A stretch of DNA of 64,000 nucleotides, from NCBI GenBank assembly GCA_944332295.1, contig CALVJR010000002.1, positions 72,589 through 136,588 of the forward strand, in the 5' to 3' direction. A program made the position numbers and the translations under genes. Positions 45,529 to 58,905 of this stretch are shown piece after piece; the first letter of the stretch is position 1, and the number at the start of each line of letters is the position of its first letter. A model generated the notes under the pieces. The model was not told the DNA's origin, ran no database searches, and was given only the letters and a program-made list of their open reading frames with translations. Source of the stretch: an uncultured Bacilli bacterium. GTDB taxonomy: Bacteria > Bacillota_I > Bacilli_A > RF39 > UBA660.

Positions 45529-45556
45529 AATCAATCTGAAAAGATTGATTTTTTTG
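45529..45556 (+). terminator. rho-independent terminator after tRNA-Cys/tRNA-Gly
   Basis: AATCAATCT-GAAA-AGATTGATT hairpin plus T6. Confidence 0.7.
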
Positions 45557-45587
45557 TGCGTTATTGCAAAGAAAGGTGTGATGTGAT

Positions 45588-45860
45588 ATGATTAAAATAA
45601 TTAAAAAGAAAATCAATATGAGTGATGAACTCAAAACCAAAATTAATTGGTCTTGCAAATTTAATAACAGACCCTACCAGATTATTGAGGGTCACCTAAG
45701 AATTGTGGAACATACAAATCTAGCGTATGTTGAGCCACACAAAGTAATTATTGGAGAAACACTATATTTATTCTTCAATGAACAAAAACATTTTTATATT
45801 GGGAATTTAAAGAAGAAAATCCCTATCGCTGATTTATCAGAGTACATAGCAAGGCATTAA
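45588..45860 (+). CDS. small protein A (90 aa); paralogue of 50527..50817, and each precedes a large serine recombinase
   Basis: Shared block ...GHL-I-(E/D)(H/N)TN(L/I)-(Y/I)-EPH(K/R)(V/I)I... between the two small proteins. Confidence 0.5.
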   Translation: MIKIIKKKINMSDELKTKINWSCKFNNRPYQIIEGHLRIVEHTNLAYVEPHKVIIGETLYLFFNEQKHFYIGNLKKKIPIADLSEYIARH

Positions 45861-45931
45861 TTAATTGAGAGTTTATATACTCCCACAATATTGGTTTATT
45901 TTGTCGTGTAAATAAATTAATATGTTAGTTA

Positions 45932-45960
45932 AGGTGTCCTTGTTATGTGACACCTTTTTT
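45932..45960 (+). terminator. hairpin AGGTGTC-N10-GACACCT plus T6 between small protein A and recombinase 1
   Basis: Read directly; could be a terminator or attenuator, or a recombinase-binding palindrome. Confidence 0.5.
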
Positions 45961-45994
45961 GGTGCCTTTCATTAAAAGAAAAGGAGGAAATATT

Positions 45995-56169: not shown

Positions 56170-56727
56170 ATGGTTTATATTGAAAGTTTAAAAAGTTATA
56201 TTGGAAAAATAAGTGATGAAGAATTTGCAGATTTAGCTAAAAGAATCTATGATATTACTGATTTTATTTGTGAAGATTATCCAAAACATAAAGAATGGTA
56301 TTTTCATAAACAACTACCTAGAATTTTTACACCAAGTGGCGAGATTTTGTTTGCAAGATCAAATGAAGATGATAACACTATATTGGCAATGTCATGCTTA
56401 AAGAAAGATGAAGAAGAAAAGAAGATTTGTACTTTATATGTGTCAGATCAATGTAGAGGTCAACATTTAGGGACAAGAATGGTGGAAGCTTCTATGAAAT
56501 TTTTAGAAACTACAAAACCACTAATTACTTTGGCAGATTATAAATTACCTATGTTCCAACCAATAATAGATAAATATGGATGGGAATTAACTGAAATTGT
56601 TGAAGGATTATATAATGATAGAGCTAAAGAACTATGTTTTAATGGAACACTTACAAAACAAGCTAACATGGATAAACAAGGACCGTCTTTAGTAAAAAAA
56701 CTTAAAGATGATAATTCAAATACTTAA
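56170..56727 (+). CDS. GNAT-fold acetyltransferase-like protein
   Basis: Motif-A-like CRGQHLGTRMVEA within a 185-aa protein of GNAT size. Confidence 0.45.
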   Translation: MVYIESLKSYIGKISDEEFADLAKRIYDITDFICEDYPKHKEWYFHKQLPRIFTPSGEILFARSNEDDNTILAMSCLKKDEEEKKICTLYVSDQCRGQHLGTRMVEASMKFLETTKPLITLADYKLPMFQPIIDKYGWELTEIVEGLYNDRAKELCFNGTLTKQANMDKQGPSLVKKLKDDNSNT

Positions 56728-56912
56728 AAATGTTGTTGTAATAAAAAAATATATACGGTATAATTAATACATCAAATACGAATGAACTTTTTACTAAAGT
56801 GTGCGTAACCCCTTTAGTAAACGCTCCATAAGAGCAATTAAAACTCATACTGTTTGGTATGAGTTTTTTATAATGCATTTTTATTGCATTTTTAAGTGCA
56901 ATTGTAGTTTAG

Positions 56913-58154
56913 CTATTTTTTTTGTAAATGTTTTTTTAAAGATTTTGATATCTGGTCACATTTTTCTTTATATGGTTTGCTATTTATTTCTAAATATATA
57001 TTAGGAACATTTGGATTAATCATTAACGAAAGTATATTGTTTAGCATATTATTATATTCTGTTAGAGTGTTTTTACTTACTATACTTTCTAATTTGTCGG
57101 TGTCATTATTGATTGCGATTTCATCAAAAAAGCCTTCAAATGTAGTAAACAAGTCACCTGATAAAGGTAATATAGAAAGATACACAGATTGACATTCTCC
57201 ATTATTATCAAATAGTTGTGGTAAAATATTTTTATCTTCGAAAGCATGCTTATCAGTTCTTAGTTCATTAATTACATTATAGTCAATACCTCCGTTTTCG
57301 ACAGCATGCCTTATTTCATGATAGAAATTATGATTTAGATTAAATCCTTTATTTTCTAATATAGGAGATATAATCCAATTATTTATTGTCTCTATATTAT
57401 TTTCTTTAATGTAGAAATGTGCACATTGCATTTGTCCATTTTGTAAAAAGATATCTTGTTGTAACATTCTGTATAATAAATCTTCTAGGCTTGTCTGTTT
57501 TAGATCGTTTTCACTAATACCATTATTTTTTGTAAAGTATCTAAATAGTCTTTGTCCCCATAATGTTTTCTTTAGTAAGGATATTTGATATTCTGTTTCT
57601 ATTTTCTTCATTTTATCTAATATTGAATCGATAATGTGAGTATTAGTTACGGGCTTGCATCCTAAATTGTTGCATTGCGTAAAATATTTTTGCTGTGATT
57701 TGTGTATTTGATTTTTCATATCATCAAGCGTATATGGATTATTTAATATGTTAATTACATCGCTAGAGTAGCTACTTAAAGATAATTCTTCAATAGGTAT
57801 ATCTTTTTTATTTAATACTGCTTCAGAGATTCCATATTCTTTACATAATAATCTTCTTATGTTCATTATTTTCATTTTTTTTAATTCTTTATTAATTTTT
57901 ATGTAATCTAAATATTCTGTAATCATGTTATCATATTCTATTTGACTTTTAAAATGATTATTAAAATCTTTTAGTTCTTCGTATATTAAATCTGGTGTAG
58001 AACTCATTAAATAGAAAGTATGATTTATTCTGTGTTCTATCAGTTCTTTATTTTTTTTACCATATTGTGACGTGTAATAAGATATTAATGTCTTATTCAT
58101 ATCCGCTAGTATTTCTTGGCAATAAATAACTTGCTCTATAAATTTTGTTGTCAT
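56913..58154 (-). CDS. hypothetical 413-aa protein containing an HExxH motif (FYHEIRHAVENGG)
   Basis: Motif read directly; family unknown. Confidence 0.4.
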   Translation of the reverse strand: MTTKFIEQVIYCQEILADMNKTLISYYTSQYGKKNKELIEHRINHTFYLMSSTPDLIYEELKDFNNHFKSQIEYDNMITEYLDYIKINKELKKMKIMNIRRLLCKEYGISEAVLNKKDIPIEELSLSSYSSDVINILNNPYTLDDMKNQIHKSQQKYFTQCNNLGCKPVTNTHIIDSILDKMKKIETEYQISLLKKTLWGQRLFRYFTKNNGISENDLKQTSLEDLLYRMLQQDIFLQNGQMQCAHFYIKENNIETINNWIISPILENKGFNLNHNFYHEIRHAVENGGIDYNVINELRTDKHAFEDKNILPQLFDNNGECQSVYLSILPLSGDLFTTFEGFFDEIAINNDTDKLESIVSKNTLTEYNNMLNNILSLMINPNVPNIYLEINSKPYKEKCDQISKSLKKHLQKK

Positions 58155-58226
58155 TGATTATTTACCTCTTTCTGCTGTTTATGAAGTATTATAGATTATA
58201 TCAGTTTAAAAGAAAAGGTTGCTAGT

Positions 58227-58781
58227 CTATTTTTGTAATTCTTTTAATAATTCTTTCGTATCATCATGCATTTTGATTTCTTTTTCTTTTAGTCTTATTT
58301 TTTGTTTTTCTAGACAATAGAGTAGAGCATTGTCTATATTTTGATATGCTATCTCTTTTACTGGTTTTAATGCTTCTGGAATTTTTTCTCTACCGATTTT
58401 ATCTGCAATATAAATAATTTTTGCTAGTAAATCCATACTTTTATTTCCTATTGTATGGTATTTTATAGCATTACAAATATCGTCATCTAAATTATATTTT
58501 TCTTTTGCTATTACGGCTCCAATATCGGCATGTTTAATATTTATGTTTTCTTTATTTTCTAAATCTTTCGATAATTTTCCTTTTTCTATCCAATAAATAT
58601 TTTCTTCTTCTGTTAATTCTTTTGCAACATCATGAATTAATCCTGCTAGGTATGCTTTATCTTCATTTATATGATAATGTTTTGCTAAAGACTTTGCTTC
58701 TTTTGCAACCATAATACTATGATTATATCTTTTTGGTGAAAGAGAGTTTTTTAAATCTTCGTTTATCTGGTCTATTTTCAT
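58227..58781 (-). CDS. YqeK-like HD-domain hydrolase (bis(5'-nucleosyl)-tetraphosphatase family)
   Basis: HD motif (LIHDVAKE) and IKYHTIGNKSMDLLAKIIYIADKIG, matching the YqeK pattern IRYHTSG...LEKVIYVADYIEP. Confidence 0.55.
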   Translation of the reverse strand: MKIDQINEDLKNSLSPKRYNHSIMVAKEAKSLAKHYHINEDKAYLAGLIHDVAKELTEEENIYWIEKGKLSKDLENKENINIKHADIGAVIAKEKYNLDDDICNAIKYHTIGNKSMDLLAKIIYIADKIGREKIPEALKPVKEIAYQNIDNALLYCLEKQKIRLKEKEIKMHDDTKELLKELQK

Positions 58782-58905
58782 GGTTATCCATCCTTTTCTT
58801 AATGAAAGTATATCATATTTTTCTTTTATTAAAAATTTAATTAACTACTTCTCATCTTTTTAAAATTATGATACAATGATTTCATAATAGGAAGGGTAGG
58901 ATAGT

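Follow-up and report, generated by a model that had tools for sequence, protein, structure and literature searches.

Positions 45491-56829 of the window, by which we mean the whole 64,000-nt stretch of AT-rich DNA analysed here (G+C content ~28%), very probably hold two different small integrative elements, E1 and E2, accreted as an array at the 3' end of a tRNA-Gly(GCC) gene; the elements are probably mobilizable. Each of them carries a gene for a large serine recombinase (LSR), rec1 or rec2, and ahead of it a gene for a small protein, A or B. The combination of tRNA targeting by serine recombinases with an orphan small-protein family is what stands out, together with the fact that the elements are common yet apparently undescribed in gut bacteria. 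An earlier inspection of the DNA letters and their translations, referred to below as the sequence-only reading, had proposed either two related integrative elements in tandem or one composite element with two recombinases. The first proposal is borne out by an empty site in a relative, sharp ends at a short core sequence, and the independent occurrence of each element in other genomes.

The insert is 11.3 kb long, of which ~4.9 kb belong to E1 and ~6.4 kb to E2. Its ends are marked by a 7-nt core, GCTCCAT, which consists of the acceptor end of the tRNA-Gly, CCA and one T. The core occurs on the plus strand in three copies in the region, at 45484 (tRNA), 50419 (E1/E2 junction) and 56823 (E2 right end), and both elements end sharply at it. 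No long flanking direct repeats were found around the insert beyond this core, as is expected for serine recombinases. The nearest relatives of the window in the genome collection are metagenome-assembled genomes of uncultured gut Bacilli, with Candidatus Faecimonas more distant. One relative, L011, was found by a genome scan with the upstream flanking protein and is 89-95% identical in its flanks. It carries the empty allele: its tRNA-Gly abuts the equivalent of window position 56822 onward. When the left flank of the window is joined to one core and then to the right flank, the reconstructed attB, 104 nt long, is identical to the L011 site throughout. The comparison with a close strain that the sequence-only reading had proposed is thereby provided, and the locus is not a stretch of core synteny shared by all relatives.

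The same comparison moves both limits of the block. The sequence-only reading had started it at the terminator of the tRNA pair and ended it at 58850. The start is the CCA end of tRNA-Gly (45490/45491), with the hairpin at 45529-45556 belonging to E1, and the true end is 56829; the 413-aa gene (56913-58154) and the YqeK-like HD gene (58227-58781) that follow are chromosomal flank and stand directly after tRNA-Gly in L011. The native terminator of the tRNA-Cys/Gly operon now lies downstream of E2, displaced by 11.3 kb through both insertions. Both elements have the same left-end order, namely core, TCGCAC arm motif, element-borne terminator, small gene, leader hairpin and recombinase gene. As the left edge of the DNA falls at the tRNA CCA in both elements, both small genes lie inside mobile DNA. 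The features that make up the array are as follows.

45340-45413: tRNA-Cys (ARAGORN)
45415-45489, plus strand: tRNA-Gly(GCC) (ARAGORN; Rfam tRNA, 64 bits); its T-arm, acceptor strand and CCA are the left half of attB
45484-45490, plus strand: core copy 1, GCTCCAT, attL of E1, within which the crossover would fall
45491-50425, plus strand: E1, ~4.9 kb, with small protein A, recombinase, TnpV, NikA-like protein and ABC exporter; boundary ambiguous within the 7-nt core
45503-45508, plus strand: TCGCAC motif, P' arm of E1, beginning 13 nt after CCA
45529-45556, plus strand: terminator-like hairpin (AATCAATCT/AGATTGATT) with T-run, borne by E1 ahead of gene A and now ending the tRNA operon
45588-45860, plus strand: small protein A, 90 aa, a member of the small-protein family
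45931-45961, plus strand: hairpin with GC-rich stem and T-run, leader of rec1, kept in L001 and L002
45995-47833, plus strand: rec1, LSR of 612 aa, starting at the ATG after the ribosome-binding site AAAGGAGG
50280-50425, plus strand: E1 right end (P arm), with an outward-facing promoter-like site at 50328-50355 and core copy 2 at 50419-50425
50426-56829, plus strand: E2, ~6.4 kb, with a conserved left 3.1 kb (B, recombinase, two small open reading frames), variable cargo and a conserved right ~80 nt
50438-50443, plus strand: TCGCAC motif, P' arm of E2, with spacing equal to that of E1
50466-50500, plus strand: terminator-like hairpin borne by E2 ahead of gene B
50527-50817, plus strand: small protein B, 96 aa, of the same family as A, with a strong ribosome-binding site, AAAGGAGGG
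50858-50877: AATGGTT/AACCATT palindrome
51054-51087, plus strand: hairpin with GC-rich stem and T-run, leader of rec2
51116-52858, plus strand: rec2, LSR of 580 aa
56736-56829, plus strand: E2 right end (P arm), with TGTGCG arm motif and core copy 3 at 56823-56829
56840-56867, plus strand: native terminator of the tRNA-Cys/Gly operon, B' side of attB, identical to the L011 empty site

The two tRNAs were the only hits in an Rfam scan of the region. The hairpins and palindrome noticed in the sequence-only reading are real: a stem with T-run stands between A and rec1 and another upstream of rec2, where the palindrome also lies. The hairpin at 45529-45556, in a region with z = -5.7, is kept in L001, L002 and L026.

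Each element occurs elsewhere without the other. Alignment of the DNA upstream of B placed the left boundary of E2 exactly, in eight independent contigs, between GCTCCA and TTGAGGTTGAAAGTCGCAC; the DNA to the left of this edge varies among the eight loci and in two of them is the 3' end of another tRNA. The left edge of E1 after the tRNA-Gly of the window has a like form, GCTCCA followed by TAAGGTAAAATCGTCGCAC. Two parts of E2 (50419-53525 and 56751-56829) are 96-98% identical in other loci, with the right end kept in L003 and L005-L007, and E2 stands without E1, directly after tRNAs or other sequences, in L006-L010. E1-type elements are present on dozens of human-gut metagenome contigs, behind the tRNAs of many different hosts. 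Among 80 metagenome loci, a set biased toward A-type elements because it was fetched with an alignment of close A relatives, the A-type left end is preceded by the same core in 75, and it follows tRNA-Gly(TCC/GCC/CCC), tRNA-Thr(CGT) or the right end of another element. The E1-type right end (TTTCG[CT]A[TA]ACGTGTATAGTTAAG, then GCTCCA) was recognized in ~40 loci, where it is succeeded by a native or host terminator or by one of at least four other left-end types. Insertions are always at a tRNA 3' end or at the equivalent core of another element, with GCTCCA(T) shared.

Both neighbour orders occur, with an E1-like element before E2 in L003 and L004 and an E2-type right end before an A-type left end in L101, and 26 fetched loci contain arrays of 2-5 left ends within 12 kb. 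Sister elements have a similar layout: tRNA-Cys, small protein, LSR and MobV-like relaxase in L011; tRNA-Gly, small protein, LSR and Mob_Pre in L019; and alike in L026. A relaxase (Mob_Pre) is present in all three.

On their domain content, the two recombinases classify as LSRs, with a catalytic domain followed by a recombinase domain and zinc ribbon. They are paralogues at 39% identity (E = 2e-123). Pfam searches returned the Resolvase domain PF00239 (7e-34 for rec1, 2e-37 for rec2) and the Recombinase domain PF07508 (3e-20 and 1e-20), whereas the zinc-ribbon domain PF13408 matched weakly at 23.6 and 19.7 bits, under the 25.3 cut-off. The RVSTEDQ motif and two CxxC pairs are present in each translation, in agreement with the sequence-only reading, which had described paralogues with a YxRVSTEDQ-type motif and a zinc ribbon. 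The integrase profile PHROG 95 was matched at 6e-114 by rec1 and 2e-118 by rec2, and rec1 matched the catalytic domain of the TP901-1 integrase at 4e-21. The nearest named plasmid recombinase is 33% identical and is labelled merely 'recombinase family protein'. No DUF4368 was found in rec1 or rec2 by a Pfam scan at E <= 0.01, and the NCBIfam models for CcrA, CcrB and CcrC scored 80-152 bits against cut-offs of 700-900.

A and B belong to one family, being 28% identical over 64 residues (E = 3e-9 in a single comparison). The block that the sequence-only reading had seen in both is genuine, and the conserved positions of the family are G35, T43, N44, E49, P50 and H51 in A numbering. A profile of A and B retrieved 476 clusters at 50% identity among 1.84 billion representatives. 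A broader profile retrieved 3324 clusters at 90% identity, all of them unnamed and none with a Pfam domain. The homology searches that had been suggested for the four proteins thus gave LSRs for the recombinases (Pfam, PHROG 95) and no matching model for A or B in Pfam, NCBIfam, PHROGs or PADLOC; a PDB sequence search with the small protein gave nothing below E = 0.16. The family is basic (median isoelectric point, pI, 9.0) and under strong purifying selection, with a ratio of nonsynonymous to synonymous substitution rates (dN/dS) of 0.08 across 52 distinct A-type genes. For A, AlphaFold2 returned a confident model (predicted local distance difference test, pLDDT, 93.9; predicted template-modelling score, pTM, 0.81) consisting of a strand, a helix, seven strands and a helix, for which no convincing structural neighbour was found in PDB or BFVD.

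The small gene is firmly linked to both LSR and tRNA. The fetched loci contain 133 open reading frames (ORFs) of the family, with an LSR gene within 900 nt in 92 cases, none in 26 and a contig end too near in 15; 92 of the 118 informative ORFs therefore have an LSR downstream, an arrangement far beyond chance. Direct inspection of unrelated family members showed tRNA-Gly, -Thr or -Cys immediately upstream, and the N-terminal extensions of many automatic ORF calls resemble, by eye, translated tRNA 3' ends. The sequence-only reading had held the pairing of small protein and recombinase to be undescribed. The layout itself is known from skr-spoIVCA and sprB-sprA, whereas this protein family has no name and no model, and a search of the literature outside subscription journals found no paper on it or on the element family. 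Six family members (P0274, P0277, P0281, P0302, P0305 and P0366) look chimeric by eye, with halves from different clades that switch near TNLxYxEPH. These apparent chimeras suggest recombination inside the gene, which would reshuffle the left arm and the recombinase side; a programmatic check of 80 linked small-protein/LSR pairs gave no clear chimeric comparison.

The likeliest role of the small protein, proposed here tentatively from its position and by analogy, is that of a directionality or excision factor or an accessory protein binding the att arms. A and B sit between attL and the LSR gene, and this position, along with purifying selection, basic charge and retention in recombinase-less derivatives, fits a recombination cofactor. 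Several points weigh against this assignment. Searches of Pfam, NCBIfam, PHROGs, PDB and BFVD detected no homology of the small protein to a known directionality factor or DNA-binding fold. A proteins that are 98% identical sit beside LSRs that are just 63-76% identical, so that A is more conserved than the adjoining LSR, which is not as tight partner co-evolution predicts. In addition, TnpX of Tn4451 works without a helper protein (PMC5704250), and the terminator-like hairpin that separates the small gene from the LSR gene invites a regulatory reading.

Regulation of LSR expression via the leader hairpin is the second likeliest role of the small protein, a possible but rather unlikely one, and some other role takes up the remainder. 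The wider alternative, that the small ORFs either regulate recombinase expression, for instance by acting on the leader hairpin, or have an unrelated function in element maintenance, is likewise on the unlikely side. It draws on the presence of the hairpin in both elements and its retention in relatives, on the basic charge of the family, on the conservation of A beyond that of its LSR, and on the 26 recombinase-less derivatives that retain the small gene, although such retention equally fits a factor required in cis with the recombinase supplied in trans. RNA structure predictions point in the same direction. In the left-end RNA of E1 (45491-45587), the CGUCGCACC arm motif is predicted to pair with GGUGUGAUG, which overlaps the ribosome-binding site of gene A, with the terminator hairpin nested inside the pairing (minimum free energy -29.9 kcal/mol, z = -5.7). 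The predicted fold hints at RNA-level control in this region, of which the available copies are nearly identical.

The elements would transfer via helper conjugative elements, for which E1 brings a NikA-like accessory protein and sister elements bring MobV relaxases. Several observations weigh against such mobility. A circle (attP) junction was found neither among the fetched loci nor, as an exact match for either element, in IMG/VR, and nothing else pointed directly to excision. Domain scans recovered a relaxase in neither E1 nor E2, and no recognisable mobilisation gene in E2. The right arm of E1 (50395-50418) reads TTTCTCA...GTTTAG, as opposed to TTTCG[CT]A...GTTAAG followed by GCTCCA in ~40 relatives, and therefore has TTCTCA in place of TTCGCA or TTCGTA. 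Through this G-to-T change in the conserved TCG motif, the present copy of E1 may be unable to excise.

Derivatives that lack a recombinase are common: the 26 family ORFs without an LSR keep both element ends, the NikA-like gene being kept in the L001 case, and such units look like cis-mobilizable elements. At L001:9903-15640, two of them stand in tandem behind tRNA-Thr, each closing with an E1-type right end; the first contains an A-like gene, a NikA-like pseudogene and EamA and GNAT cargo, and the second an MFS gene. L022-L025 hold further recombinase-less derivatives at 6827-~9700, and the L022-type small protein is present on 116 contigs. Members of the small-protein family also occur on 25 'viral' contigs of IMG/VR (L109-L133), mostly a few hundred bases from the contig end and with an LSR next to them. 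These are either prophages beside such elements at the same tRNAs or cases in which the provirus boundary was drawn at the tRNA.

It is improbable that E1 and E2 are the decayed remains of prophages or phage satellites, or genomic islands that have become fixed and immobile. The absence of a relaxase and of a circle junction, the mutated P-arm motif of E1, the abundance of recombinase-less derivatives and the relatives of the small gene at the edges of the 25 'viral' contigs would all be compatible with decay. However, near-identical (95-99%) E1 and E2 modules behind many host tRNA variants in many samples require recent horizontal movement, and a relative at 89-95% identity has the site empty. 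Neither LSR gene is disrupted, strong purifying selection acts on the small gene, and domain and PHROGs scans found no phage structural or replication genes.

Less probable still is a composite element with two cooperating recombinases, comparable to ccrA/ccrB of SCCmec or DsiA/DsiB of Dehalococcoides, in which the 11.3 kb would move as a unit. This was the ccrAB-like option of the sequence-only reading. It is true that the LSR paralogues share 39% identity and orientation within a single insert, that both match NCBIfam CcrB weakly, that the pairing of an E1-like element with E2 recurs in L003 and L004, and that an array with outer att sites could in principle excise whole. Nevertheless, the two elements are separated by a full core with both arm types at 50419-50425, the recombinase genes are 3.3 kb apart and not co-transcribed, and the CcrB scores of 152 and 142 bits fall well short of the cut-off, 900. 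E2 is found without E1 (L006-L010), E1-type elements are found without E2 and followed by native terminators or other element types, and L101 has the opposite order. As E1 and E2 each occur alone or with other neighbours elsewhere, they do not form a ccrAB-like composite, a reading rejected on the low Ccr model scores, the att core between the recombinases and this independent occurrence. Finally, the notion that the small ORFs derive from a chromosomal target gene, as pieces or copies of it, with GHL...TN...EPH as a target-site footprint, was plausible before the boundaries were mapped and could cite A-like genes without a recombinase downstream (L001/L002, L022-L025), but boundary mapping dismisses it: conserved element DNA begins ~100 nt ahead of each small gene, precisely at the tRNA CCA, the L011 empty site has no such gene, and the recombinase-less loci keep the left end, NikA-like gene and E1-type right end and are hence deletion derivatives.

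The tandem of two independent elements raises the matter of how the tRNA is targeted. The left arms of 101 distinct junctions were classed by how far TCG lies from the GC of the core. This distance is 13 nt in 42 arms, which are tRNAs with the TCG of the T-loop GTTCGA, and 18 nt (20 arms) or 17 nt (15 arms) in element right ends, the P arms. In P' arms, TCG[AC]AC begins 13 nt past CCA, which places GTTCGA or GTGCGA on the bottom strand at the equivalent of 18 nt. The arms of attP therefore have a TTCG motif that resembles the T-loop, at a distance from the core 4-5 bp greater than that of the T-loop of the tRNA itself in attB; the B' side, formed by host terminator regions, has no comparable motif. 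A similar shift is known for the LI integrase, in which the zinc-ribbon-domain motif lies 5 bp further inward in attB than in attP (PMC3783163).

We propose that the LSR of each element would join its own attP to an attB made of the tRNA T-arm, acceptor strand and CCA. Crossover would occur inside the shared GCTCCA(T), most likely at GC, the central dinucleotide by zinc-ribbon-motif geometry, and the tRNA would consequently be regenerated intact. The TTCG-centred motif of attP would mimic the tRNA T-loop (GTTCGA) at the zinc-ribbon-motif geometry of serine integrases; such T-loop-like recognition would account for the use of several tRNA genes (Gly, Thr, Cys) as targets. Little seems to depend on the right half of attB, so that an incoming element may insert between the tRNA and a resident element, using the two as its target, and arrays would result. 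The element nearest the tRNA would be the latest arrival, so that E1 would have come after E2. Each left end supplies the tRNA operon with a substitute terminator, behind which lie the gene for the basic ~90-aa protein, the hairpin leader and the LSR gene. Two features fit this scheme less well, namely the weak dyad symmetry of the reconstructed attP sites and the 1-nt difference in motif spacing between arm types (17 vs 18). It is possible, though we consider it rather doubtful in this full form, that with E1 and E2 a large gut-wide family of LSR elements has been recognised for the first time, one that uses T-loop, acceptor and CCA, a near-universal feature of tRNA genes, as its att site and can thereby reach several tRNA genes with one recombinase lineage, rebuilds both tRNA and terminator, and depends on a ~90-aa directionality or arm-binding cofactor with a new fold.

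Several known systems share some of these properties. Tn4451 and Tn4453 are likewise small elements with a single large serine recombinase, mobilisation functions and a cargo gene, with the recombinase gene at the left end and tnpV directly behind it. The latter holds for E1 only (PF14198), as E2 has no TnpV match. Outward-facing promoter-like hexamers at the right ends are a further likeness to Tn4451; in E2 the site at 56736-56764 consists of TTGTAA, a 17-nt spacer and TATAAT. Lyras and Rood are said to have reported in 2000 that the right-end site of Tn4451 completes the tnpX promoter across the circle joint. The right-end sites here are a lead only, without statistical support, as a promoter scan found such sites not enriched relative to shuffles in this AT-rich DNA (92 found, 87 expected). 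Unlike these elements, which are specific for tRNA 3' ends and share a 6-7 nt core, Tn4451 has low target specificity, its ends being defined by a 2-bp identity (PMC5704250). DUF4368, which marks the multi-targeting clade of TndX/TnpX-like recombinases (PMC10083194), is not seen in rec1 or rec2. Tn4451 also has a TnpZ-type (MobV) relaxase and an oriT, whereas E1 has a NikA-like accessory protein and no relaxase, and it has no gene between the left end and tnpX, where the conserved small gene always stands here. The resemblance to Tn4451-type elements noted in the sequence-only reading therefore extends to the recombinase-tnpV adjacency of E1, but not to target choice or to the relaxase, which E1 lacks.

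The closest behavioural precedent, by analogy rather than homology, is provided by the ssrA islands of Dehalococcoides. These are serine-recombinase integrative mobilizable elements (IMEs) at the 3' end of a tRNA-like gene, in the T-loop region, and they form tandem arrays with recombinase-less members that were read as cis-mobilizable (PMC3146451). They differ in their target, the tmRNA gene ssrA, in a 20-bp direct repeat as opposed to 6-7 nt, and in a six-gene integration module that has CcrB-like DsiB with DsiA, includes a second small serine recombinase and faces the opposite way (PMC3146451); the elements of the window have one LSR each and no second small serine recombinase. The Dehalococcoides islands also lack a homologue of the small protein and belong to another phylum and habitat.

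The order of att site, small gene and LSR gene is shared with sprB-sprA of SPbeta and skr-spoIVCA of skin, in which the directionality-factor gene skr is immediately upstream of the integrase gene spoIVCA (PMC6957869). In contrast to the present elements, SPbeta and skin interrupt protein-coding sporulation genes and excise under developmental control, and their small proteins have no detectable sequence or fold similarity to the A/B family. Likewise, tyrosine-integrase islands, integrative and conjugative elements and IMEs regenerate the tRNA 3' end, accrete in tandem and have non-autonomous derivatives, but their enzymes differ in family and chemistry. The part of the tRNA 3' end that is duplicated by tyrosine-integrase elements is typically longer, whereas the core here is a few nucleotides.

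Serine-recombinase IMEs are described as integrating inside genes and disrupting them, and no directionality factor is known for them (PMC5704250, PMC5357655). The present family of serine recombinases instead acts like tyrosine-integrase islands, with insertion at tRNA 3' ends, intact tRNAs and arrays. Its att sites suggest a testable rule, the shift of a T-loop-like motif by 4-5 bp between attP and attB, and the small-protein family, with its 3324 unannotated clusters, confident model and lack of a fold match, is a concrete candidate for the missing cofactor. Since the elements are common in human gut metagenomes and carry exporters and candidate defence genes, their recognition would improve the annotation of gut Bacilli.

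The remaining genes of the two elements are listed below.

47837-48190, plus strand: TnpV-family protein of E1 (PF14198, 4e-32), 4 nt after rec1
48286-48657, plus strand: NikA/MbpA-like ribbon-helix-helix mobilisation accessory protein of E1 (PF21983, 9e-9; NCBIfam MbpA weak)
48654-50270, minus strand: E1 cargo, fused permease-ATPase ABC exporter (PF00664, PF00005)
52897-53299, plus strand: two overlapping small ORFs of E2, 59 aa and 92 aa, that travel with rec2
53632-56727: E2 cargo, beginning with two small minus-strand ORFs, then regulators and further genes
54290-54502 and 54652-55107: helix-turn-helix (HTH) regulators of the E2 cargo
55202-55741: PDC-M11B-like protein of the E2 cargo, 179 aa (PADLOC PDC-M11B, 5.7e-19; PHROG 3136)
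55743-56087: ASCH protein of the E2 cargo
56170-56727: GNAT protein of the E2 cargo

The double-HTH protein starting at 54652 and the 179-aa PDC-M11B-like protein may together constitute a candidate anti-phage system, with the ASCH and GNAT genes next to them.

The tRNA-Gly site is occupied differently in other relatives. L015 has a cluster of ~9 kb there (11486-20440) that resembles those for radical-SAM enzymes and ribosomally synthesised and post-translationally modified peptides (RiPP), and L012 a 2.5-kb insert (1658-4189) that encodes proteins of 464 aa and 172 aa and no recombinase. The site in L018 (2072-2110) is empty, and the 413-aa gene found at 56913-58154 in the window is missing there as well. 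A third element of the family lies in L011 (11405-16187) between tRNA-Cys and tRNA-Gly, which in the window are separated by a 1-nt gap (45413/45415). It encodes a 102-aa small protein, a 622-aa LSR, a MobV-like relaxase (motif HMDEKTPHLH) and a 206-aa protein. With this element located after tRNA-Cys, both tRNAs of the Cys/Gly pair serve as targets. Elsewhere in the window are a cluster of twelve tRNAs at 14795-15959 (Val, Thr, Tyr, Gln, Lys, Leu, Ser, Met, Asp, Phe, Arg, Pro) and a lone tRNA-Ala at 31874-31949.

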